Shown one piece after another: positions 4,301-30,989 of a stretch of DNA of 64,000 nucleotides. The position numbers and the translations under genes are program-made. The first letter of the stretch is position 1. Each line of letters begins with the position of its first letter. The notes beneath the pieces are model-generated. The model was not told the DNA's origin, searched no databases, and saw nothing but the letters and a program-made list of their open reading frames with translations. The stretch comes from Candidatus Levyibacteriota bacterium (GTDB lineage Bacteria > Patescibacteriota > Microgenomatia > Levybacterales > UBA12049), in assembly GCA_027459725.1 (NCBI GenBank), contig DAIDHK010000002.1, positions 35,752 through 99,751 of the forward strand. Direction: 5' to 3'.

Positions 4301-5182
4301 TTACAAGCTATGTACTGCCGGAATAATTTTTTCACCAAAAATTCTGATAGGCTCAATCTCTTCAACATTTCTAATGCCGAAGATAACATGTGAAACCCCA
4401 AATTCTTTGAGATGCTTACACTTTTCGATTGCATCTTGTACATTTACTTTCCCATTCTCCGGTCTTATCTGTTCAAGCACTGTAATCTCAATATCATTAA
4501 AATCACGACCTACATCTTGACAATGTTTTTTTAGAACATCTATCTTATGTTTCAATTCCTCATCACCCGATCTGGCAAACAGATTACAAGCATCAGCATA
4601 CTTCGCAACTAATTTTAAGGTTTTTTGTTCACCACCACCACCAATCAGAATAGTTGGATGAGGTTTGGATATTGCTTGCGGGTAATTCATGGGCCACTTT
4701 GCATTCACATGCCTACCCACAAATTCTTTATCATCTCCTTTCCACATCTGTAATGCCATTTGCAATGTATCTTCCAGCCTCTCAAATCTTTCTTTCAAAG
4801 GAGGAAATGGGAAACCTAAAGCATTGGATTCTTGCTCATTCCAGGCTGCGCCTATTCCCATATATGCTCTCCCGTTACTTAAGACATCAAGAGTAGTGAC
4901 TGCTTTTATAAGCAAAGCTGGATGACGATAAATTACTCCAGTTACCATCGTTCCTAATTTGGTATTTTTTGTTAAGCCAGCAAGATAACCTAATGTAGTA
5001 TATGCTTCCAACATAGGCTCTTGCGGTTCACCTATATGCTGAATCTGAAAGAAATGATCCATCACCCAAATACTATAAAAACCAGCTTTATCTGCAGTAG
5101 TTGCTATTTCAGCTAATTTCTTACTAATATTTTTATTTCCCCCTTCCCAGGTAAAACGATTAATCTGTAACCCTATTTTCAT
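4301..5182 (-). CDS. Luciferase-like monooxygenase (LLM) family oxidoreductase, probably F420-dependent
   Basis: 293 aa. TIM-barrel LLM features (WVMDHF, GIGAAW, ILIGGGG). Adjacent to cofD and cofE in a co-directional operon. Confidence 0.7.
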   Translation of the reverse strand: MKIGLQINRFTWEGGNKNISKKLAEIATTADKAGFYSIWVMDHFFQIQHIGEPQEPMLEAYTTLGYLAGLTKNTKLGTMVTGVIYRHPALLIKAVTTLDVLSNGRAYMGIGAAWNEQESNALGFPFPPLKERFERLEDTLQMALQMWKGDDKEFVGRHVNAKWPMNYPQAISKPHPTILIGGGGEQKTLKLVAKYADACNLFARSGDEELKHKIDVLKKHCQDVGRDFNDIEITVLEQIRPENGKVNVQDAIEKCKHLKEFGVSHVIFGIRNVEEIEPIRIFGEKIIPAVHSL

Positions 5183-5210
5183 AATTTCACCTCCTTCCCA
5201 AAAATATTAA

Positions 5211-6131
5211 TTATTCAATTTTTATTGTCTTTTGCGCAAGTGATCTTTTAACGTCCAATGTTTTCATTATGGTATTAGTGACTATAACTTCTATATTCAT
5301 TTTCTCAATATCAACCTTTTGATCTTTATCTTTCTCATCAATGACAATAGTATCCAAAAAATCTTTATAATACTCTGCCACACCGTTTGCAGAAACTTGC
5401 ATACCCATACTCCTCATCATCTTGTCCGCTGGTCCTTTAATAGTCATACCTCCAACAATCGGACTAACTGCTATCACCTTGGCTTGAGTTTTTTTTAATG
5501 CGTCCTTGATCCCTTCAACCGCTAAAATACTACCTATACTTACTAAGGGATTACTTGGAGCTATGAGAACTTTATCCGCTTTTATAATAGAATCCAAAAC
5601 ACCCGGAGCTGGTTTTGCTGCTGTTATACCTAGAAACTCGATTCCATGTACTTCATCTTCCGTTTGGTTTTTTACCATATATTCTTGAAAATGGATTTTC
5701 CCTTTTGGAGTTAAAATGTACGTAGAAACAGGATCATCACTCATGGGTAATAACTTAAACTTTAATCCATAATTGTCTAAAATTATTTGAGTAACTTTAG
5801 TTAAACTTTTTCCTTTTTTCAATATGTCAGTACGCAAAATATGGGTGGCAAGATCTTTATCACCGATTTTAAACCAGTCAGCATATCCCATCTTCGTGAG
5901 CTGTTCCATTGTACAAAACGTATCATTTTTTATCCCCCAGCCGGTAGTTTCATTAACCACTCCCGCTAAGGTATACGTAACAATGTCTAAATCGGGTGAT
6001 ACATGCAGACCATAGAATTCTTTATCATCGCCTGTGTTTCCGATGACAATTAAATCTTCTTCATCAATTACTTGTACAACGCCCTGTAAAAATCTCGCTG
6101 CACCCACACCACCTGCTAATACTGTAATCAT
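5211..6131 (-). CDS. cofD: 2-phospho-L-lactate transferase CofD (F420 biosynthesis)
   Basis: 306 aa. N-terminus MITVLAGGVGAARFLQGV...VIGNTGDD is typical of the CofD/UPF0052 family. Adjacent to cofE. Confidence 0.75.
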   Translation of the reverse strand: MITVLAGGVGAARFLQGVVQVIDEEDLIVIGNTGDDKEFYGLHVSPDLDIVTYTLAGVVNETTGWGIKNDTFCTMEQLTKMGYADWFKIGDKDLATHILRTDILKKGKSLTKVTQIILDNYGLKFKLLPMSDDPVSTYILTPKGKIHFQEYMVKNQTEDEVHGIEFLGITAAKPAPGVLDSIIKADKVLIAPSNPLVSIGSILAVEGIKDALKKTQAKVIAVSPIVGGMTIKGPADKMMRSMGMQVSANGVAEYYKDFLDTIVIDEKDKDQKVDIEKMNIEVIVTNTIMKTLDVKRSLAQKTIKIE

Positions 6132-6136
6132 AATAT

Positions 6137-6898
6137 TTAACGAAACATATCGGTATTCGCACTACGGATTAAATCTTGACCTGTTTTATTAGCTGATATA
6201 AAGTTATATCCCCTTATAAGTGCTACTGGCACTTTTTCTGTTTTGCCCATCACAAGTTCAGCTGCAGCTGCCAGTTCATCAGCCGCAGCTATAATGGTTG
6301 CTTGTAAAAATTGTCCGTTAGTATCCTGCTTACCCCGATAGTCACAGATCGCTTGCATACCAGAAACGCCTATCGCATTATTAACTTGACCTTCTCTCCA
6401 GGGCCTACCCCACGTATCAGTTATAATTACAGCTAATTTAAGATGTTGTCCATTTAAGTAAATAAGTTTTTTTCGAATATCATCTGCTGAACGATCAGGA
6501 TCTTCTGGCAAAATAGATAGTATTTCACTGTCGTCTAAGTTTGAAGCATCTACACCTGCATTGGCACAGATGAATCCCTGTTTGGTTTCACAAATTAATA
6601 CATTATGATCCATTCGTACTATCCTTTTAGTTTGCTGTAAAACTACCTCAATATGGCGTGGATCTTTGTTTGCTTTTATAGCAATTTGTCTGGCAAATTC
6701 GGAAGGAATTATTGTCTTCAAATTAATAATTCTACCTTCTGCCTTGGAAATAATTTTTTGTGTAATAACGATAATATCACCAGCTTGTAAATTAAGATCC
6801 TGTTTTTGCAGTGCAGAATAAATAATATCTGCTATCGAGTCCTTAGATTTAATATTCTTAATATTTCTAATAGGAATGATTGTTAAAGAAGTTGTCAT
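6137..6898 (-). CDS. cofE: Coenzyme F420-0:L-glutamate ligase CofE
   Basis: 253 aa. DIIVITQKIISKAEGR ... ANAGVDASN motifs of the CofE family. The stop/start overlaps the upstream LLM gene (ATGA), suggesting translational coupling. Confidence 0.75.
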   Translation of the reverse strand: MTTSLTIIPIRNIKNIKSKDSIADIIYSALQKQDLNLQAGDIIVITQKIISKAEGRIINLKTIIPSEFARQIAIKANKDPRHIEVVLQQTKRIVRMDHNVLICETKQGFICANAGVDASNLDDSEILSILPEDPDRSADDIRKKLIYLNGQHLKLAVIITDTWGRPWREGQVNNAIGVSGMQAICDYRGKQDTNGQFLQATIIAAADELAAAAELVMGKTEKVPVALIRGYNFISANKTGQDLIRSANTDMFR

Positions 6899-7881
6899 AG
6901 AACTTTTAAACTAGGTAACACTTTTGTACCCAACATTTTAATAAGTTCCTCCTGACGATTATTAGAAGTCGTTTGAATAACTACTGTATCGACTGTCAAC
7001 TTTGTGATTAATGGAGAATATACTTTTATATAATCCTCTGCTGATGAAAGAATAGAATACTTGCTTAAGATTTCTTCCCTAGGCAAATCGTCTGCTTCCT
7101 CTTGTAATAATTTCGGTTCAACTATCGTACTTCTGTGCGGCGCGCGTAAACCTCTCCAAGGACCTAATGCATTCCATGCTTCTTGATTATCGTCAGCAAA
7201 AACACTCCAATGAGTGGCAACTAAGCCAAAACCTATTCTACCTAATCCACTTGCTTTCTCGCTTGCTGGTTGAACAAGTTCGTTCAAAGTATCCTCAACG
7301 TTTTTTACACTGCATATTAAACCATCTGAATACTCAGCTGCCAGTAATGCTGATTTATGCCCTCCCGCAGCTAATAAAATGGGGACTTTATGCAACGGTG
7401 GACTATATAGTTTCAGCTTGTCCGCTTTATAAAATTGACCGTTTTCGTTTAGTTCTTCTCCATCTAACAACTTTCTCATTATTCTAAGAGCTTCCTTCAT
7501 TCTTGCTGAACGCTCTTTATAATTTGGATAGGTATAACCAAGCGGAACCTCATTAATTGCTTCTCCCGTTCCCACTCCTAAAATAAACCTTCCATGAGAT
7601 AAACGGTCAATAGTCGCAGCAGCTTGAGCAACAACTGCCGGGTGATAACGAAATAGAGGAGTTACTACACCCGTCATTAAATCTATCTTTTTGGTTGAAA
7701 CTGCTATGGCTCCCAAAGTTGAAAAAGCGAAACCAGCTGCAGATTGATCATCCACCCATGGATTAAAATGTTCTGAAACAAAAACTCCATCAAATCCCAC
7801 ATTCTCGGCAAGAACTGCATGTTTTACTAAATCTTCAGGTTGAAATTGCTCATGGCCACAAAAGTAATAAATTTTTGCCAT
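6895..7881 (-). CDS. LLM-class F420-dependent oxidoreductase, Fgd (F420-dependent glucose-6-phosphate dehydrogenase)-like
   Basis: 328 aa. N-terminus YYFCGHEQFQPEDLVKHAVLAENVGFDGVFVSEHFNPW and GVGTGEAINE resemble the Fgd family. Confidence 0.65.
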   Translation of the reverse strand: MAKIYYFCGHEQFQPEDLVKHAVLAENVGFDGVFVSEHFNPWVDDQSAAGFAFSTLGAIAVSTKKIDLMTGVVTPLFRYHPAVVAQAAATIDRLSHGRFILGVGTGEAINEVPLGYTYPNYKERSARMKEALRIMRKLLDGEELNENGQFYKADKLKLYSPPLHKVPILLAAGGHKSALLAAEYSDGLICSVKNVEDTLNELVQPASEKASGLGRIGFGLVATHWSVFADDNQEAWNALGPWRGLRAPHRSTIVEPKLLQEEADDLPREEILSKYSILSSAEDYIKVYSPLITKLTVDTVVIQTTSNNRQEELIKMLGTKVLPSLKVL

Positions 7882-18226: not shown

Positions 18227-18965
18227 ATGCAAAAAAGAAGCAAGATCATAGTTAGCGCTCACGAACTAAATAACTACGTGTTTTGCAAACGAGTATGGTG
18301 GTTAAGATTTCATGGTTTTGATCAGGAATCTAACAAGTTAGAACTTGGTACACTAAGACACGATCGTTTAGTATGGCAAGCGCTAATATCACGTAAAATA
18401 TTTATTGTGGGTTTCATACTCTTAATTATTGGCCTTGTAATTCTTGTTTATGCTTTATTATCTAATCTCAATTTATAACATGAATCCTCTCTTATTTATC
18501 TCATTTATCATTATAATATCTGGTGTAATACTAATTTTTGTTTTCAACTTTTTAGAAAATATACTTGGATCCTTGACTGGTAAAATTATCTACCATGATG
18601 CCACTCAACTTCCGGGGAAGACACTAAGAGCTAAAACTTTGCCCCTAATTGGTAAACCAGATTATATCTTAAAAGAAAACGGAGAATACTTACCTTTGGA
18701 ATTTAAAAGTGGAAAAACACCAAAACACCCATATTCTAGCCATAAAGCACAACTTATGGCTTATTGCCTTCTGATAGAAGAAAATTATCATCATCGTCCT
18801 TCTGTTGGTATTTTAAAATACCCTCAAAAAGAATTTAGAATTAAATATACTATCGAAGAAGAATCTTTAACAAGACGATTAGTCAATGAAATAATACATT
18901 TAAAAATAAGTGGTGAAGAACCACATTGTGATCACCCTCAACATAACGTTAATCTAATTGATTAA
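18227..18965 (+). pseudogene. Cas4/RecB-like PD-(D/E)xK nuclease (DUF83-like), split into two overlapping frames
   Basis: ORF 18227..18478 carries the Cas4 N-terminal NNYVFCKRVWWL (YxxCxRxxWL) motif. ORF 18444..18965 carries LIGKPDYILKENGEYLPLEFKSGK (motifs II/III), QLMAYCLL (QxxxY) and a C-terminal EPHCDHPQH. The ORFs are in different frames with a 35-nt overlap inside a hydrophobic stretch. No CRISPR array is nearby. Confidence 0.5.
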
Positions 18966-20642: not shown

Positions 20643-21236
20643 GTGTCTATTATGACCAAGTTAAATGATTTTAAGAAGATTTACGAGAAAATCAATAGAT
20701 ATATTAACCCACATTATCTGCTCCCACTTCTCTTCATACCATTTATCATGTCAGCAGGTAGTATTTTACTTCCCCAAACTACTAATGCACAAAATACTAA
20801 TTTCCAGGAAATATCTAATTCCATGTTAATTAAACCCTCCCATACACATATAACTTATAATGACAATTTGCCCTCACCCCATAATCCAAATCGAGCAATC
20901 TGGTATCCCGTAACACTAACGAACAGCAACATGAGTTCTTATTATTTTTCTTCCTCGCATAACACTACCTTTTCAGGTACCATAGAAAATTACTCATATA
21001 ATCAACAACATAATGTATTGATTTTGATAAGCATGATTAATAGTAATAATATGACTGTCGCAAAAAAAAGCTGGAAAAATATAAGTCTTGCTCCCTTCCA
21101 AATGTTGAATATCAGACTTACTTCCCCCTTAAATCTAAATAGTGGTAAATATTATGTTAATATAGGAGTTTATACTCCTGAAGGGAGTAAATTACTCGGC
21201 TGGTACCCTCATTATCAAACCTTTATCGTCAGCTAG
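20643..21236 (+). CDS. Secreted hypothetical protein
   Basis: 197 aa. Hydrophobic signal-like segment ending TTNAQ. Confidence 0.45.
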   Translation: MSIMTKLNDFKKIYEKINRYINPHYLLPLLFIPFIMSAGSILLPQTTNAQNTNFQEISNSMLIKPSHTHITYNDNLPSPHNPNRAIWYPVTLTNSNMSSYYFSSSHNTTFSGTIENYSYNQQHNVLILISMINSNNMTVAKKSWKNISLAPFQMLNIRLTSPLNLNSGKYYVNIGVYTPEGSKLLGWYPHYQTFIVS

Positions 21237-21297: not shown

Positions 21298-24200
21298 GTG
21301 TACATAATAAATTTAATACTTCAGATTATTATGTGGCATTTAAGATACTTAGTTATAGTTTTCATTTTTAGTCTTTTTTTTCTGTTAAATTCATCTTATG
21401 CATTTGCGACTGATGGATATTTTGTAATTGGAACGGGTGCAGGCGGGGGTGGAGCTGGAGGTTCCACAGGAGCAACCGGAGGTAACGGCGGAAACGCGGA
21501 TGTAACTATAAACCTAGCCACTAGTTCAGCAAATAATGTAATTTTTGGCAACGGAAGTGGCGGTGGGGCAGGTGGCAGATCTATTGGGTTCACCCCGGAT
21601 GTACGTGGGGGACATGGGGGTAGTGGCAATAACACACTTATAGGGGGATCTGGCAATGATATAATTTTCGGCCACGGATTTAATGGCAGAGACACCTCAG
21701 ATGGAGCATATTTTGCTGGCAATGGGGGTCTGGGTGGAGGAGGAGGCGGTGGTGGCGGCGGTGGATTTGGTATTTCTCCAGGTGGTGCAGGAGGTGGTAT
21801 ATGTGGGGGTGGTGGCGGAGCAGGGACTGATAACGGTGGCGGCGGTGGAATTCTAGTTACATGTAATGGAGCTAATATAGGAGGTAATGCCAATTACAGC
21901 TATGGTGGTAATGGAGGAAACTCTGGATATGATTGGCTAAACAGCCAGGGACTGGGTGGTACATATTCTAGCTACAATGGAGGAGGAGGAGGAGGATTTG
22001 GAGGAGCTACAGGAGGAACCGGATCTACCCCAGCAGGTAATGGTGACACCAAACAACACTGGTACTATGATGCGAATGGTTTAATTTATAAATACTTTAC
22101 TTTATCTGTATTACAGAACATTATGACCAACTACCCTAATTATGGTACTGGAAGCGCCACCATTAACGGTAAAGGAGGAAGTAATGAATTATATGGGCTT
22201 GGTACTGACACTACATTTATTATTGATTCAGCTGATAATGCAACTCAGGATAGAATTTGGGATTTTCATGGTAACGATAAACTATTGTTAGAAACAAATG
22301 GTCAAACAGTGGCAACTGTTGACGTAAATCATATAGTTTCAGGTGCTACTACTGGCGATTATGGATCAGGCGTCGCCAACAATGATACTCAATTTACTTT
22401 TGGAAATACCACAGTTGATCTGATAGGAGTAACATATTCTTTAAGCGCTAGTCCTAATGGAACTGTTAATGCAGTTAACCATCCTCCTACTATCTCATTA
22501 AATAGTACACCCTTAGCTTATACTCCTAGTGCAAGTGCAACTCAACTTGACTCTTCCGGATCTGTCAATGATCCAGACGGAGATAGCAACTGGAATGGTG
22601 GAACGCTGGTGGCCCAAATAACATCTAACTCCATTAGCCAAGACACATTATCCCTAAGCGGGACTAATATTTCCATAGATGGGACGATATTGAAATATAA
22701 TGGTAACCCTGTTGGTGCTATCTATCCCAGTGGCGGTTCTGTAACTGGCAATGGAATATTAACCTTAACTTTTGATAGTGGGGCTACTAATGCCATTGTC
22801 CAGGATATGTTGCAAAATATACGATTTTATACAAATACAGCTGGAACTTATAATCGCATTGTGACTGTGACTGCAACCGATTATGCGGGTGCATCTGCAT
22901 CGGCATACCGGGAAGTCGATGTTGCCGGCGCAGGATCTATTACACTTTATACAGTAAACGCAAATGCCGCTGTAGGAGGCTCAATAAGTCCCACTAGCTG
23001 GAATGTTGTTAGCGGCAGTACTTATCAGTTCAGTATCACACCATCCACTGGATATAGTATCGGCTCTGTGACAGGCTGTAGCGGCTCAATCAGTGGTAAT
23101 ACATATACCACAGGAAATATAGGCTCAGCCTGTGACATTTCAGCCAGCTTTACCCCCAATACTTACACTATGGATTTCAACAGCCAAGGAGGCAATTCTG
23201 TGAGCTCTATCTCTCAAGGTTACAATTCATCATTGACATTGCCAAGCGCTACAAAAGGGGGTTACACATTGTCTAGCTGGAATACAGCCCCAGACGGTAG
23301 TTTAACTTCGTACTCTCCTGGATCAAGCATCAATATGCCCTATAATGGAATTACTCTTTACGCACAATGGGTCATCGAAAATACATCTTCCAACAGCAGC
23401 TCATCAAGTAATAATTCAAATTCCATTAATAGTACTAATCCACCTGCATGTTCTGAAGCCATTCCTACCGGCACTCCTAATATTTATGAATTGAATCCCA
23501 CCACTAATTCAGTAATACTGTATTTTACTCCTGTTTCGAATGCTAATAGTTATTATATTCGCTATGGGACTGATTCCAGCGAGAATCAATTTGCTACTTC
23601 ATTTTCTGATTCAGATCATAGTGGTGCGGTGAGTTTTACCATAAACGATTTGCTACCTGGTTTAACATATTATTTTTCTGTCAGAGGTGGAAATGGCTGC
23701 GCACCAGGAGATTGGTCAACTACATCTTCAGTACGAACAACTTCTATTCAAAGTCTTTCTACCGGGCTATCGGCTAGTCCATCAAATGTCATTCCCACTC
23801 CCGATCAAAACAAAAAAATCAATATTGTTTCTGAAAAGCTGACGACTCAACCCTCAAGTGTTTGTTCATATACTGTACAGTCCGGAGATAGCTTGTGGGA
23901 AATTGCTCAAAATAAACTCAACAATGGTACTCAATACCAAATCTTGGAAAAATTAAATAATTTAACTTCACCTTTAATCTCTTCCGGGCAAGTTTTAAAA
24001 TTACCATGTAATAATCAGCCACAAACATTAGTCCAGGCACAAAATGAAATAAAGCAAACAGGTATAGATTTAAATGTTCAGGTTTTGAGTATGGCTGGTA
24101 CTCCAATGTCAGGTGTCTGGGTAACTCTTCATTCCAAGGTACAGAAAGCCTTAACTGATAAAAACGGAGTTGCACACTTTATAAATATAGATACTGGTCA

Positions 24201-24426
24201 CCATCAGGTAATATTGGCTTACAATGGATTTAACGGTGAACAAAATATTTCTATTACCGGTAAACAAAAACAACAGACTTTAACATTAAGAGTACAGCTA
24301 AATAATACAACACTAACACCTTATGTATGGGGTTTGATAGGCGCTCTAATATCTATAATAATTGTTTTAGTATTAATAATATTCTTACTTTTTAAGAAAA
24401 AACACAAAACTAAAAAGATTGAGTAA
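21298..24426 (+). CDS. Large multi-domain cell-surface protein (Gly-rich RTX-like repeats, InlB B-repeats, Fn3-like, LysM, C-terminal TM anchor)
   Basis: 1042 aa. Signal peptide. About 200 codons of GGxGG repeats including the RTX-like nonapeptide GGSGNDIIFG. A divergent InlB B-repeat (VNANAAVGGSISP...GYSIGSVTGC) and a Listeria-Bacteroides repeat (GYTLSSWNTAPDGS...TLYAQW). LysM (YTVQSGDSLWEIAQ...). C-terminal helix LIGALISIIIVLVLIIFLLFKKKHK. Confidence 0.75.
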   Translation: MYIINLILQIIMWHLRYLVIVFIFSLFFLLNSSYAFATDGYFVIGTGAGGGGAGGSTGATGGNGGNADVTINLATSSANNVIFGNGSGGGAGGRSIGFTPDVRGGHGGSGNNTLIGGSGNDIIFGHGFNGRDTSDGAYFAGNGGLGGGGGGGGGGGFGISPGGAGGGICGGGGGAGTDNGGGGGILVTCNGANIGGNANYSYGGNGGNSGYDWLNSQGLGGTYSSYNGGGGGGFGGATGGTGSTPAGNGDTKQHWYYDANGLIYKYFTLSVLQNIMTNYPNYGTGSATINGKGGSNELYGLGTDTTFIIDSADNATQDRIWDFHGNDKLLLETNGQTVATVDVNHIVSGATTGDYGSGVANNDTQFTFGNTTVDLIGVTYSLSASPNGTVNAVNHPPTISLNSTPLAYTPSASATQLDSSGSVNDPDGDSNWNGGTLVAQITSNSISQDTLSLSGTNISIDGTILKYNGNPVGAIYPSGGSVTGNGILTLTFDSGATNAIVQDMLQNIRFYTNTAGTYNRIVTVTATDYAGASASAYREVDVAGAGSITLYTVNANAAVGGSISPTSWNVVSGSTYQFSITPSTGYSIGSVTGCSGSISGNTYTTGNIGSACDISASFTPNTYTMDFNSQGGNSVSSISQGYNSSLTLPSATKGGYTLSSWNTAPDGSLTSYSPGSSINMPYNGITLYAQWVIENTSSNSSSSSNNSNSINSTNPPACSEAIPTGTPNIYELNPTTNSVILYFTPVSNANSYYIRYGTDSSENQFATSFSDSDHSGAVSFTINDLLPGLTYYFSVRGGNGCAPGDWSTTSSVRTTSIQSLSTGLSASPSNVIPTPDQNKKINIVSEKLTTQPSSVCSYTVQSGDSLWEIAQNKLNNGTQYQILEKLNNLTSPLISSGQVLKLPCNNQPQTLVQAQNEIKQTGIDLNVQVLSMAGTPMSGVWVTLHSKVQKALTDKNGVAHFINIDTGHHQVILAYNGFNGEQNISITGKQKQQTLTLRVQLNNTTLTPYVWGLIGALISIIIVLVLIIFLLFKKKHKTKKIE
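21430..22030 (+). repeat. GGN codon-repeat tract (poly-Gly coding) inside the surface-protein gene
   Basis: Runs of ggt/ggc/gga/ggg codons. It is locally GC-rich and strand-asymmetric, and it creates a spurious Pro-rich antisense ORF. Confidence 0.7.
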
Positions 24427-25041: not shown

Positions 25042-26466
25042 TTATTTAAAACTAGATAACTCTCCCCAACGCTTACCGGTCTTAACTTCAACAACTAATG
25101 GAACAGCCAAAGGATAAACACAACAAAGAACATCTTTTATTTCATTAATTACTTTCTTCATTCTGTGATTATCCTTCTCAGGGATTTCAAATACCAAATC
25201 GTCATGAATCTGAAGTAGCAAAAAAACATCTGGATATATATCTAGAATCTTTTCTTGGACATCCACCATAGCTTTTTTCATGAGATCAGCTGCAGATCCT
25301 TGTACCGGGTAATTCATTAATACACGTCTCATATTGTTACTGATAAATTTCTGACCAGGAAATTCGAAGACATAGCGTCGACGGCCAAGCAATGTTTCGA
25401 CTACTCCATTGAGTTTCGCATTTTTTAAGTACTCATCATAGTATGTCTTGATACTGGGATAAGAGATATAAAAATTTTTAATAAACTGTGCCGCATCAGC
25501 TTCGGAAATATGTAATCCTGTACTCATCCCGTAGCTACTCATACCATAAATGATGCCAAAATTAATTGTTTTACCAACTGCTCTTTGTTGCTTGGAGACC
25601 TGTTCGTAAGAAATATTAAATAATTTGCTGGCTGTCAGTGTATGTACGTCTTGGTTATTTTTAAATGCTTTAATTAATTCTTTTTCATCTGCTAAATGCG
25701 CCAGAACTCTTAACTCCTGCTGTGAATAATCAAAAGAGACTAAATTCATTCCCTCGGAAGCAACAAAACATGATTTTATTTCCAGTCCAATCGGAGAAGA
25801 TACAGGAATATTTTGCAGATTCGGATTAGATGAAGCTAAACGGCCAGTGTTTACATAAACCTGGTTATATGTAGTATGCACACGATCATTTTGATCTGTT
25901 TTTGTTATTAAACTTTCTACGTAAGTCGATCTTAGCTTAGTTAATTCTCGATAACTCAGTATATGTGAGATTATAGCAAACTGATCATTATATAATGATA
26001 ATTCTGATTCATTGGTTGCATATTTGCCCGTTTTAGTCTTACCTAATGGCACTCCGACTTTTTCAACCAAAAAATGTCCCAACTGAATAGGTGAATTAAT
26101 ATTTAATCCCCCACCTGTTTGCTTATTAATCTCTTCTTCTAAGTCTAAGATCATTCCCTCAATCTCTTTTCCAACTTGCTTTAATTGTTTGGTATTAAGT
26201 AGTATTCCTCGTTGCTCCATCTTAAATAGAACTTTAGCTAGAGGCATTTCAATCTTATTAAATAATTTTTTAAGTTGAGAATTTTTGTCAAGTAGTTGTT
26301 CTTGAACACGAGCCAATTCCAATAAGTTATCAACTTTGTATTTTTTAAAGGTTTCTTCTTGAGTACCAATAGAATGACCATCACTAAGCAAAGCCTCGGC
26401 AATATAGCAATCAAAGTTTGCCGAAAAATCTTTGGAAGTTTTGCTATCCCAGATTGGTTTAAGCAT
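25042..26466 (-). CDS. polA: DNA polymerase I, polymerase domain only (no 5'-3' exo and no complete 3'-5' exo domain)
   Basis: 474 aa. Begins near the ExoIII-like DCYIAEAL motif, followed by IEMPLAKVLFKMEQRGI. Family-A motifs RRxxK (RAVGKTINFGIIYG), QIHDDLVFE and YPVQGSAAD are present. An in-frame TGA lies 8 codons upstream of the ATG. Confidence 0.8.
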   Translation of the reverse strand: MLKPIWDSKTSKDFSANFDCYIAEALLSDGHSIGTQEETFKKYKVDNLLELARVQEQLLDKNSQLKKLFNKIEMPLAKVLFKMEQRGILLNTKQLKQVGKEIEGMILDLEEEINKQTGGGLNINSPIQLGHFLVEKVGVPLGKTKTGKYATNESELSLYNDQFAIISHILSYRELTKLRSTYVESLITKTDQNDRVHTTYNQVYVNTGRLASSNPNLQNIPVSSPIGLEIKSCFVASEGMNLVSFDYSQQELRVLAHLADEKELIKAFKNNQDVHTLTASKLFNISYEQVSKQQRAVGKTINFGIIYGMSSYGMSTGLHISEADAAQFIKNFYISYPSIKTYYDEYLKNAKLNGVVETLLGRRRYVFEFPGQKFISNNMRRVLMNYPVQGSAADLMKKAMVDVQEKILDIYPDVFLLLQIHDDLVFEIPEKDNHRMKKVINEIKDVLCCVYPLAVPLVVEVKTGKRWGELSSFK

Positions 26467-27158: not shown

Positions 27159-28736
27159 TTATTGAGCTATGCCTGATATGATATAAAGTGTAATGGCACG
27201 TAAAGATGTACCGTAGTAACCAGTCGGAGAGTTATTGATTAAATTAGTCAAACTTTGTTGTGCGTATGTTGAGCTCGGATTTACTTGACCGGCAGCCGCA
27301 TATGCTGCTATAAAAGTTGTATCTAAATAGGAAGTTAAAGGTTGCCCTGAAAGTGTATACCCACTCTTAAGATTGGACATTCCGACCTTACTGAAAAAAT
27401 TTGCTTGTTTCTGTAAGACATTTTCAGCATTTGGGTCGCCGTTTGATTTGTAATCCAATAATAAACGAATTGGTGTCCTTACAGCATCGTAATAAAAGTC
27501 ATTAGTATATTGATCAAAAGAAATATTGGCATTGGAAAAATTGCTATTTAACCAATCTGGTAACAATCCAGTGGAGCTATTGGCAGCTTGATTTAGCCAG
27601 GAACTGGTGGCATTTGCAATGGAATTCCACTGGCTATCACCACTGATCTGTGCAAAAGCACGATAATATGATGGTTCTAAATAAGAAGGATTTATTACGT
27701 CCGTTTGACCCCAGTTGTCACCAGGATTTAGATAGTTACCATTGATCAATTCAGTCGATTTCATATGTGTGATGAGATTACGTGCGGCGTTGTCATAACC
27801 ATTGCCCGGCCATTTAGAGTTCGCTTTAATCAAAGCATAAGTCATATCCTCATCTGCATCAGTTGCAGATCCCTGTCCTATGACATTACCATTTTGATCA
27901 ATATCCCAATTCATCAGACCTTTACCATCCATATATTTTTGTCCATACGCCCAAAGTCCATCAAATGTTGATTTATCCCCTGCAAACGCACTTAGCAACA
28001 TACCATAGCCTATCCCCTCACTCACTGTATCGTTGTTATTTTCAGGTCTAACCACTCGGAACATCCCAGAACTTACTGGTCTAACATATATTGATTTCCA
28101 TTGACTGTATGCACTTTGGGCAGCATTGTAAGCAGACAAATTAATATTTACCGCTTGTGGTGAAGAAGTAGGTGTAGAAGCAACTATTGTAGGCATAACT
28201 GCAGGATTACTAGCTACAGGAGTAGGGGTTAAATTAGATGGAGATGCGCTTGTTGTTAAACTCGTGGAAGGCTGCGTAACTACAGGACCGCATGCAGAAA
28301 AAATGGTAACAGTGGAAAGATTGGAAAACCAAGCGTAATTGCTTGACCAATTAGAGTTGAATAAACCAGCTTCAATAGTATATGTACCAGCTGGCAAAAC
28401 AGTAGTAGTTACCGAGTATGTGGTTCCTCCTGCTATACTAAATGCTTGAAATGATTTCTGGTGAGAAGAATTGTATAGTTCAATATCAATAATATTACCT
28501 TGAGGAACAGATTGTGAAAAAGTTAATGTTATATCAAGAGTGTTAGAAGTCGGAGCGGTTGTAGAGATCTGTGGAGGAGTCGTCGAAGCAGCAGAAGATA
28601 TAGGAATACGAATTAAAACGCCCGCGGATAAAATAAATAAACTTAAAAGGCCAGACAGAATAAATTTTCTCGGTCTTACTGTTTTCATAGGCAGAGAACA
28701 GAATATACCAGACGAAAAAAACATTGTCAAAGTCAA
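27159..28736 (-). CDS. Secreted glycoside hydrolase family 8 (endoglucanase/chitosanase-type)
   Basis: 525 aa. Signal/TM N-terminus and an S/T/P-rich linker. GH8 signatures TVSEGIGYGM and ATDADEDMTYALIKANSKW. Confidence 0.7.
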   Translation of the reverse strand: MTLTMFFSSGIFCSLPMKTVRPRKFILSGLLSLFILSAGVLIRIPISSAASTTPPQISTTAPTSNTLDITLTFSQSVPQGNIIDIELYNSSHQKSFQAFSIAGGTTYSVTTTVLPAGTYTIEAGLFNSNWSSNYAWFSNLSTVTIFSACGPVVTQPSTSLTTSASPSNLTPTPVASNPAVMPTIVASTPTSSPQAVNINLSAYNAAQSAYSQWKSIYVRPVSSGMFRVVRPENNNDTVSEGIGYGMLLSAFAGDKSTFDGLWAYGQKYMDGKGLMNWDIDQNGNVIGQGSATDADEDMTYALIKANSKWPGNGYDNAARNLITHMKSTELINGNYLNPGDNWGQTDVINPSYLEPSYYRAFAQISGDSQWNSIANATSSWLNQAANSSTGLLPDWLNSNFSNANISFDQYTNDFYYDAVRTPIRLLLDYKSNGDPNAENVLQKQANFFSKVGMSNLKSGYTLSGQPLTSYLDTTFIAAYAAAGQVNPSSTYAQQSLTNLINNSPTGYYGTSLRAITLYIISGIAQ

Positions 28737-30062: not shown

Positions 30063-30989
30063 ATGAGCTGGAACGAAGTTTTAAATGATTTTATTTTACA
30101 AGCACAACAAAATAACCTAAAAACTTCAACGTATCCAAAAGAGTGGGATAGCTTAAGATTGAGAATATCTTTTGGTATGGGAGCACCTGCAAGAATTCCT
30201 TGGGTTGCATTTGTAGCTCCTGATATGGAAGTTAGTAAAGGATTTTATCCGGTTTATTTGTATTATAAAGACTCAAATACCCTAATACTCTCGTACGGCA
30301 TAAGCGAAACAGAGGAATTTGGGAAATCTTGGCCTTCGGAAATAATGAGCTCCGCACAAACTATAACAGCTTATTTTGATAAAAAAGTTGCCAGATACGG
30401 AGACTCATTTGTTTTTAAAGCTTATAAAGTAAATGTTAAGGGAAATAAGGTTGAACTTGCTTATCCGGAAAGTAAAAAAGTTGCAAGTTCACAAGATATT
30501 GAATCAGATTTAGATACTCTTTTAGATTATTACAAAAATGCAGTTAACCTTAGTTCAAGTAGAATATCTCCTGAACTAAGTCAGGGTTTATTTTATATGG
30601 AAAAGCAATTAGAGGATTTTCTGATTGCTAACTGGCCACATACTGAACTTGGAAAGAAATTAGATTTAATAATTGAAGAAGGAGAATTATTAAGCCAACA
30701 ATATAAAACTGATTTAGGACCAATTGATATTTTAGCAAAGGATAAAAAAACCGGAAGTTATGTTGTAATTGAGCTTAAAAAGAACCAAACCAGTGATGAC
30801 ACCATTGGACAATTAGCTCGATATATGGGTTGGATAAGACTTAATAAGAAAGATGATAAAGTAAGAGGCATTATTATCGCCGGTCAATATGACAAAAAAT
30901 TAGATTATGCTTTAAAAATGGTTCCCAATACAGAGGTGTTTATTTATGAGGTTGATTTTAAATTAAACTCTTTTGAAAGAGTGTCATAA
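30063..30989 (+). CDS. DUF3578 (McrB-N-like modified-DNA recognition domain) fused to a NucS/DUF91-like PD-(D/E)xK nuclease domain; candidate modification-dependent (type IV-like) restriction endonuclease
   Basis: 308 aa. N-terminal half LRISFGMGAPARIPWVAFVAPDMEVSKGFYPVYLYYKDSNTLILSYGIS matches the DUF3578/MrcB_N pattern (SFGxG...IPWIAF...KGxYxVYLF...LSL). C-terminal half GPIDILAKDKKTGSYVVIELKK...IGQLARYMGW...VRGIIIAG matches the NucS C-terminal nuclease core (GxIDIL-x-D...VVIELK...Q...Y...RGILIA). Preceded by a ~360-bp AT-rich intergenic region. Confidence 0.6.
   Translation: MSWNEVLNDFILQAQQNNLKTSTYPKEWDSLRLRISFGMGAPARIPWVAFVAPDMEVSKGFYPVYLYYKDSNTLILSYGISETEEFGKSWPSEIMSSAQTITAYFDKKVARYGDSFVFKAYKVNVKGNKVELAYPESKKVASSQDIESDLDTLLDYYKNAVNLSSSRISPELSQGLFYMEKQLEDFLIANWPHTELGKKLDLIIEEGELLSQQYKTDLGPIDILAKDKKTGSYVVIELKKNQTSDDTIGQLARYMGWIRLNKKDDKVRGIIIAGQYDKKLDYALKMVPNTEVFIYEVDFKLNSFERVS

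Follow-up and report, generated by a model that had tools for sequence, protein, structure and literature searches.

What kind of protein begins with some two hundred residues dominated by glycine and ends in a membrane anchor, and what might it do at the surface of a bacterium of the candidate phyla radiation (CPR)? This question is raised by a single gene in a stretch of 64,000 nucleotides from a Candidatus Levyibacteriota bacterium (assembly GCA_027459725.1, contig DAIDHK010000002.1, positions 35,752 to 99,751 of the forward strand), hereafter called the window. An initial annotation, made from the letters alone, described the product as a giant Gly-rich surface protein with RTX-like nonapeptides, InlB B-repeats, Fn3-like and LysM domains and a C-terminal anchor, and as a candidate for a large adhesin or attachment organelle. 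Our analysis points to binding or attachment as its most likely function, and away from a secreted toxin. We lean, if only by a little, towards a Sec-exported, type I (N-out) surface protein of fibrillar-adhesin-like build in which the N-terminal head is the binding module. We hold the architecture and topology with considerable confidence; the adhesive or binding role, taken by itself, is close to an even call.

The open reading frame (ORF) was found on the + strand at exactly the coordinates first given for it. Its parts are as follows, with residue numbers counted from the GTG start (1042-aa numbering) here and throughout.

21298..24426, + strand: the whole ORF, GTG start, 1042 aa, stop included
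21331..21408, + strand: Sec-type signal peptide MWHLRYLVIVFIFSLFFLLNSSYAFA, recognized from sequence and hydropathy; homologs have equivalent N-termini
21409..22149, + strand: Gly-rich domain, residues 38-284 (247 residues), with in-register Gly blocks alternating with variable segments and two short terminal helices
21616..21672, + strand: pair of RTX-type nonapeptides, GGSGNNTLI-GGSGNDIIF-G, within the Gly-rich domain, found by regular expression
22150..22503, + strand: predicted RTX block-V-like β-roll and cap (GKGGSNELYGLGTDTTFIIDS...DRIWDFHGNDKLLLE...), residues 285-402
22504..22935, + strand: residues 403-546, an Ig/cadherin-like β-sandwich that bears the motif NDxDGDxxW and belongs to an ~160-aa repeat family
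22948..23160, + strand: Flg_new_2-like domain (PF18998-like, a divergent InlB B-repeat), residues ~551-621, sub-threshold at 19.4 against 23.6 bits
23164..23367, + strand: Flg_new (Listeria-Bacteroides repeat; PF09479), residues 623-690, 38.9 bits against a cutoff of 27
23377..23445, + strand: Ser/Asn-rich linker, recognized by composition, 42% identical to the ortholog
23494..23739, + strand: Fn3-like domain with a conserved Cys pair, residues 733-812, fn3 (PF00041) at 22.9 against 25 bits
23869..24006, + strand: LysM (PF01476) between two Cys, residues 858-903, 42.3 against 20.9 bits, 7e-11
24058..24306, + strand: membrane-proximal Ig-like/CarboxypepD_reg-like β-sandwich, residues 921-1003, Ig_DR_A0283-like at 30.2 against 27.1 bits
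24322..24393, + strand: C-terminal transmembrane helix YVWGLIGALISIIIVLVLIIFLLF, Kyte-Doolittle 19-residue maximum 3.48
24394..24423, + strand: basic cytoplasmic tail KKKHKTKKIE, a positive-inside stop-transfer read from the sequence; the ortholog also has a basic tail

The topology is predicted from the two ends of the protein. The ATG at 21331 (codon 12; 1,031 aa) is likely to be the true start in preference to the GTG, because the database protein P0001 (1031 aa, 100% identical to the ORF product from this ATG) begins there and because the signal peptide is canonical when read from there. This peptide is laid out as MWHLR, a 14-residue hydrophobic core and SYAFA|TDG; cleavage at AFA|TD is predicted from sequence and hydropathy, with no dedicated predictor, and the sequence of the peptide contains no lipobox Cys. 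At the other end, residues 1009-1032 form the sole strong hydrophobic segment near the protein end, and the C-terminal helix with its KKKHK stop-transfer was thus correctly recognized at the outset. The eight Cys residues make up four domain-internal pairs, all of which are kept in the ortholog P0002, a full-length, syntenic counterpart with 77% identity in a 'Candidatus Levyibacteriota' metagenome-assembled genome (MAG); such conserved intradomain pairs fit an extracytoplasmic protein.

The head begins with the Gly-rich domain. Gly accounts for 89 of the 214 residues from 38 to 251 (41.6%), compared with 9.4% of the remaining 791 residues (binomial P 1e-35), GGxGG matches there 19 times with overlaps counted, and at one place 11 Gly stand in a row; 'almost pure GGxGG' was therefore an overstatement of an enrichment that nonetheless lies far beyond chance. 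The local GC content is 52% in a window of 35% GC, and the GC content at third codon positions (GC3) stays at the genome norm. An antisense Pro-rich ORF of 165 aa (21396..21893, - strand) is a mirror of the GGN codons and no gene. As for the RTX-like calcium-binding units, a regular-expression search found the strict GGxGxDxUx nonapeptide a single time (GGSGNDIIF, residue 116), flanked by two units that match in relaxed form, and within the nonapeptide pair the Ca-ligand Asp is kept in the second unit only. The full-length Pfam scan did not report HemolysinCabind; we do not accept this miss as proof of absence, since residues 97-144 alone score 25.6 against a cutoff of 23 and the homologous position in P0010 and P0011 scores as HemolysinCabind. 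Such units are present at this spot, but the bulk of the region is probably no array of them. Fourier analysis detected no periodicity in the Gly spacing at periods 2-18, including 9 and 3 (at period 3, the power had z = -0.14 in the query, and the family averaged -0.18), which speaks against a simple nonapeptide array as well as a triplet repeat. The absence of a period of 9 or 3 argues for a unique fold and not a repeat array. AlphaFold2 (AF2) modelling of the domain alone gave a predicted local distance difference test score (pLDDT) of 90.5 and a predicted template modelling score (pTM) of 0.89, and ~50 of the 247 residues superpose on β-rolls. The model thus places a two-plus-two-turn RTX nucleus in the domain, next to ~200 residues without a match among solved structures.

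The next part of the head, residues ~285-402, is modelled as an RTX roll with a cap, of the kind seen in CyaA block V, and its sequence has the familiar cap pattern, with the cap-type sequence TFIIDS...DRIWDFHGNDKLLL standing after the last roll turns. The fold matches from the predicted structure were CyaA RTX block V, at a score of 13.6 (119 residues aligned, 2.0 Å), Serratia LipA (12.1), the AlgE6 R-module (9.8), RsaA (9.3), an Aeromonas adhesin RTX-like domain (8.9), and cohesins, pilins and cadherins (7-8.5). The predicted structure of the head therefore has a β-roll fold with a C-terminal cap; AF2 of the whole head reached a pLDDT of 85. When the cap segment and the head profile were compared with PDB chains, no genuine sequence match was found, and the only PDB match, which fell on the Gly-linker tag of a construct of methyl-coenzyme M reductase, was discounted.

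The head defines a family of its own. In distant homologs, the match to the query (35-42% identity, residues 65-558) is confined to the N-terminal ~520 residues, which stand behind signal peptides of their own, and their Gly runs, interspersed hydrophobics and Asp align in register. The alignment of the Gly-rich part comprises 26 diverse members, which are 43-56% identical to the query if the close ortholog is not counted, and has 33 invariant columns. The invariant residues of the head are nearly all Gly, Asp and Phe, with Trp also present; the family alignment contains no invariant catalytic-type His, Cys, Ser or Glu in the head and no nucleophile/acid pair. A profile search of 1.84 billion representatives retrieved 1,679 proteins at E<1e-3, part of which match through the third-domain (~160-aa) repeat alone, and 295 at E<1e-30, with the best E-values reaching 1e-218. 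Two evolutionary units can be told apart in these proteins. The first (profile positions 2-~350, the Gly-rich part and cap) occurs once per protein, in an N-terminal, internal or C-terminal position. The second (profile positions ~350-515) is a unit of ~160 aa that can be repeated in tandem as many as 33 times, in proteins as long as 7,000 aa, beside which the epithet 'giant' given to the query is relative. Neither head unit has a Pfam-A or NCBIfam model, tblastn found no second copy of the head in the window, and in the literature we found no description of a bacterial Gly-rich/RTX head of this type, only the analogies of PGRS, gp38 and fibrillar adhesins. The NDxDGDxxW repeat family to which query residues ~403-546 belong (P0033, P0039, P0040, P0045 and others) yields most of the profile matches.

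Genome matches to the head come mostly from Bacillota (Ruminiclostridium, Thermincola, Acetivibrio and MAGs), together with one MAG labelled Fibrobacter. The proteins that bear it are anchored to the wall by three SLH domains (N- or C-terminal), by PG_binding_1 or by LysM plus a transmembrane helix, and their stalk modules include Flg_new_2, SWM_repeat, fn3, cadherin, PKD and Big; proteobacterial giants with the head carry DUF4347 and further RTX repeats. In the SLH-anchored Bacillota homologs (P0004, P0006-P0015; Ruminiclostridium cellobioparum, Thermincola and Acetivibrio), the same ~520-aa head occupies the same N-terminal position, but it is followed by a stalk of SWM_repeat and fn3 and by 3 x SLH, where the query has Flg_new, fn3, LysM, Ig and a transmembrane helix. 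In three Bacillota loci, the head gene stands directly after a two-component system and a second SLH protein of identical layout, which has a BspA-type leucine-rich repeat (LRR) in the N-terminal slot. In these loci (L005 88-11528, L006 207-10130 and L013 44-9626), the genes preceding the head gene encode a histidine kinase, a BTAD response regulator and the SLH protein, of 1,500-1,700 aa, with BspA-type LRR, Calx-beta, Ig and fn3 domains; the set looks like a regulated two-gene surface-protein cassette. In the proteobacterial giants (P0056, P0060, P0071 and P0087), the Gly-rich and cap unit is followed by a conserved C-terminal ~200 aa with a duplicated 'VNLNDAIAILKMIVGL...DFDGNG' of dockerin-like look, and DUF4347 is often found at their start.

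The Levyibacteriota pair departs from the rest of the family in its acidic residues. Conserved Asp residues bind Ca2+ in RTX rolls. Seven positions of the head are occupied by Asp in 19-24 of the 24 other family members, namely position 6 of four nonapeptides and the Asp of three 'GDG' motifs, and the Bacillota homologs keep all of the RTX Asp ligands. In the window protein and its ortholog, head positions 9, 32, 43, 48, 75 and 89 instead hold T, V, N, N, N and H. The query thus departs from the classical RTX pattern of Asp at nonapeptide position 6, D121 (head position 84) being the sole Asp retained of the seven. The first 100 head residues contain 6 and 4 acidic residues in the pair, compared with 8-15 in the others. 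If these Asp bind Ca2+, the Levyibacteriota head would largely do without calcium and yet keep the Gly scaffold of the family; calcium is probably less important in this protein, because most of the ligand Asp have been replaced.

Compared with known RTX β-roll proteins, such as CyaA block V (Bordetella; PDB 7rah/6sus/9p6c), serralysin, LipA and the AlgE R-modules, the query has in common the GGxGxDxUx motif, the HemolysinCabind match on an isolated segment and the cap-type sequence. However, it has one to three recognizable nonapeptides where they have tens; its roll is N-terminal, Sec-exported and membrane-anchored, whereas theirs are secreted by a type I secretion system (T1SS); and six of its seven conserved Asp are replaced, with ~200 Gly-rich residues placed in front. 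The novelty is in the head, which is a Sec-exported, N-terminal, Gly-expanded and Asp-depleted RTX variant, while the stalk and anchor are ordinary. The domain mix was initially called unusual, and this is apt for the head; the stalk and anchor are stock parts, and the same head is found on SLH or PG_binding_1 proteins.

The stalk consists of five different β-sandwich-type domains, one copy each, without a tandem array. Searches did not fail for all of the domains named in the initial annotation, and LysM passes Pfam at twice its cutoff and matches PDB LysM chains at 3e-8, including the chitinase LysM 5k2l, which is bracketed by the same two Cys. LysM is a βααβ module that binds peptidoglycan or chitin. 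Listeria-type B-repeats had been announced in the plural; a single Flg_new/InlB B-repeat lies above the gathering score, and the second, Flg_new_2-like copy is sub-threshold, with a score taken on the isolated segment and the same domain faint in the ortholog. The Fn3-like domain falls just below its cutoff in the query and passes in P0002 (25.6 bits); it also scores below the cutoff for Pur_ac_phosph_N (27.3 against 30 bits) and has weak matches to Fn3 domains in PDB, for example neogenin Fn3 at E 0.026. The membrane-proximal Ig_DR_A0283-like/CarboxypepD_reg-like domain, which was absent from the first list, also matches CarboxypepD_reg at a sub-threshold 25.4 bits. The Pfam scan found no SLH domains in the query or the ortholog, and no catalytic domain was detected in the protein by the Pfam and NCBIfam scans.

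How might these parts work together? The protein would be exported by Sec and its signal peptide cleaved after AFA; the C-terminal helix would retain it with the Lys-rich tail inside, and the disulfide-bracketed LysM would dock on the peptidoglycan of its own cell. The window holds a complete division/wall cluster (MraW, PBP, Mur ligases, MurA, MraY, FtsW, MurG, FtsA and FtsZ), which indicates that the cell makes peptidoglycan that LysM could bind. Reading outward, the order would be the basic tail, the transmembrane helix, the Ig/CarboxypepD_reg-like domain, LysM, a linker, the Fn3-like domain, the Ser/Asn linker, two InlB-B-repeat-type domains, the Ig/cadherin-like domain and the head. The Ig, Fn3 and B-repeat domains, with the two low-complexity linkers, may serve as a spacer that carries a tip of ~360 residues, in which the Gly-rich domain with its vestigial RTX mini-roll is predicted to be fused to the capped CyaA-block-V-like roll. 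Such a head would be an exposed ligand-binding module, with the Gly blocks as scaffold and the variable segments as binding surface.

This arrangement resembles that of known surface adhesins. In fibrillar adhesins of Gram-positive organisms, the domains for adhesion lie N-terminally and the anchors C-terminally, and SLH, LysM and PG_binding_1 are on the list of anchors (PMC8286594); an N-terminal head combined with C-terminal SLH, PG_binding_1 or LysM plus a transmembrane helix fits this polarity rule. With the fibrillar adhesin-like proteins of monoderm bacteria (Monzon et al. 2021, PMC8286594), the query shares a signal peptide, an N-terminal head, an Ig/Fn3/B-repeat stalk and a listed C-terminal anchor (LysM), and its LysM and C-terminal transmembrane helix together provide the cell-surface anchor expected of that group. 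It differs from them in that its head lies outside the catalogued adhesive domains, so that only its position fits, in that its stalk domains are single and heterogeneous, and in that binding is only predicted. The BspA-type LRR that fills the same slot as the head in the neighbouring SLH proteins is itself a recognized adhesin-type module. What has been shown in support of this reading is the domain content, the in-register conservation of the head, a fold that is predicted for it with confidence and resembles RTX rolls, the return of the head on variously anchored proteins and the lack of T1SS genes in the window. The proposal of a large adhesin is thus borne out as regards a surface-exposed, anchored, multi-domain layout with a distal N-terminal head, and is left without a recognized adhesive domain in that head; the further links to an 'attachment organelle' and to 'episymbiosis' are speculation.

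Several points weigh against the adhesin-like interpretation. The head matches no catalogued adhesive domain, and the stalk is short and without tandem identical repeats. The head is the best-conserved part between the two orthologs (81-90% identity, with 81% in the Gly-rich part, against 42-53% for the linkers; the domains range over 72-90%), which in itself counts in favour of this interpretation, yet a highly conserved tip would be unusual for an adhesin that meets a variable partner, as far as these two sequences can indicate. The structure predictions were built from shallow alignments, of 11 and 26 sequences, and, with six of the seven conserved Asp replaced in this lineage, what the model says on calcium may not hold for it. 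Finally, the adhesive role is deduced from architecture, and host attachment by Levyibacteriota is putative.

The same conservation would suit a surface used for self-interaction, and the protein could accordingly be read as an S-layer or surface-coat component whose RTX-like head self-associates laterally, possibly in a cation-dependent manner as in RsaA, with the transmembrane helix and LysM replacing SLH. Three SLH domains, which are the classical means of anchoring an S-layer, are present in most of the close head homologs, and RsaA is among the fold matches. We nevertheless judge this reading unlikely. SLH also anchors many adhesins and enzymes that are not S-layer proteins (PMC8286594), a stalk of the beads-on-a-string kind, joined by flexible Ser/Asn linkers, is unlike a lattice, giant proteins with many repeats and lengths of up to 7,000 aa also contain the unit, and the Ca-ligand Asp are mostly lost in the query. 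RsaA itself, the RTX S-layer protein of Caulobacter, is T1SS-secreted, anchored to lipopolysaccharide, lattice-forming and Ca-dependent, properties that set it apart from the query as read here.

The presence of LysM, which is typical of autolysins, raises the different idea of a wall-active enzyme, in which LysM would direct an unrecognized catalytic head to a polysaccharide, be it peptidoglycan or another. The division/wall cluster is not far from the gene; a gene for a glycoside hydrolase of family GH8 is found within a few kb in the window and in the loci L001 and L003; and NCBIfam gives partial matches to the MltD, YneA and M23 hydrolase families, although via LysM only. Against this, no catalytic domain was detected; the residues that are invariant in the head (Gly, Asp, Phe and Trp) include no conserved nucleophile/acid pair; the structures that it matches in fold, RTX rolls and Ig domains, are non-catalytic; and the head is at the end farthest from the wall. 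We regard an enzymatic function as very improbable.

A classical RTX toxin or adhesin exported by T1SS is a reading that the data already contradict and to which we give hardly any credence. The strict nonapeptide, the HemolysinCabind match on an isolated segment and the RTX fold match speak for it, and one homolog was named 'Ca2+-binding RTX toxin-like protein' by its source. However, the N-terminus is a cleavable Sec-type signal, the RTX-like parts are at residues 38-402, far from the C-terminus, and the C-terminus is a transmembrane helix with a basic tail and no secretion signal. The neighbouring T1SS or pilus genes that were to be looked for did not appear: no ABC exporter, HlyD, TolC or pilus genes were found among the 50 larger ORFs scanned in the 64-kb window. 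To our knowledge, moreover, CPR and Bacillota hosts have no outer membrane for a T1SS to span. The weakest alternative, that the Gly-rich region is a disordered low-complexity spacer with chance motif matches, draws on its high Gly content, its 11-Gly run and its lack of a Pfam or NCBIfam family, and it is already contradicted by conservation and next to untenable, given the 33 invariant columns and in-register alignment of 26 sequences, the profile E-values down to 1e-218, the confident AF2 model (pLDDT 90.5, pTM 0.89) and an identity to the ortholog of 81% as against 42% for true linkers.

Returning to the adhesin-like reading, an analogy for a Gly-dominated tip may be sought in the polyglycine-II domains, namely the gp38 tip of phages S16/PP01 and the predicted PGRS of mycobacterial PE_PGRS proteins, which are Gly-dominated, ordered and surface-exposed, like the query head. 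The gp38 domain sits at a distal tip beside a β-helix, and its Gly motifs, which are conserved, are separated by loops that vary; the query shows the same alternation of conserved and variable segments. In T-even phage fibres, the variable loops of gp38 on their Gly scaffold bind the receptor; the comparison is one of analogy and not homology. Unlike polyglycine-II proteins of the gp38, PGRS and snow-flea antifreeze protein type, the query has no Gly period of three and no sequence relationship to them, and its poly-Gly runs could still form polyglycine-II helices. A bolder proposal, which we consider rather improbable, is that the Gly-rich domain has a fold not seen before, in which Gly would form a non-periodic lattice or solenoid nucleated on a vestigial RTX turn pair. 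The domain would then define a large family, so far undescribed, of receptor-binding heads exported by Sec; in Levyibacteriota it would be a calcium-independent tip for attachment to a partner cell or polysaccharide, a cellular counterpart of the gp38 tip.

The gene belongs to its genome. The flanking NUDIX, PolA, GH8 and FtsZ proteins are 73-92% identical to those of the MAG that encodes the ortholog (FtsZ 92%, PolA 81%), and both loci have a GC content of 35%; synteny and these identities mark the source of the window as closely related to that MAG, and hence as a CPR/Microgenomates bacterium. The GC3 of the gene (0.28) is the same as that of the neighbouring housekeeping genes (0.26-0.29), and recent horizontal acquisition was rejected on this ground; housekeeping-like GC3 and synteny together indicate a resident gene. 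Directly upstream, a 197-aa ORF (20643-21236, + strand) has a hydrophobic N-terminal segment and is possibly a secreted orphan; as it has no Pfam match and no counterpart in the ortholog locus or any related locus, we did not count it as a member of the system. The GH8 gene lies at 27159-28736 (- strand) in the window, at 15241-16767 in L001, which is the Levyibacteriota MAG locus, and at 125-2542 in L003, which comes from the unrelated MAG labelled Fibrobacter; its proximity to the head gene could be a coincidence or a hint at a polysaccharide ligand. The window also encodes a family A DNA polymerase of 474 aa (25042-26466, - strand) in which only the polymerase domain was recognized and exonuclease domains were not detected, and a polymerase of the same length and 81% identity is found in the MAG (L001 13725-15149). 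Two stand-alone nuclease-type genes, one Cas4/PD-(D/E)XK-like (18444-18965, + strand) and one encoding MrcB_N and NucS_C/YhcG-like domains (30063-30989, + strand), flank the region and may be defence-related islands. An F420-related cluster (4301-7881, - strand), with CofD, F420-0:gamma-glutamyl ligase and two luciferase-like monooxygenases, is unexpected for the reduced metabolism of CPR bacteria.

In summary, the head of this protein belongs to a widespread domain family that curated libraries have missed and that is confidently predicted to fold at 40-50% Gly, for the most part without a match among solved structures. Because the head is Sec-exported, it uncouples RTX-type architecture from type I secretion, and the Asp-rich Bacillota and Asp-depleted Levyibacteriota members offer a natural comparison for the contribution of calcium to RTX rolls. 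CPR bacteria are presumed to rely on being in contact with other cells or with substrates, and few of their surface proteins are understood; the protein described here provides a concrete and well-delimited candidate whose topology is clear.

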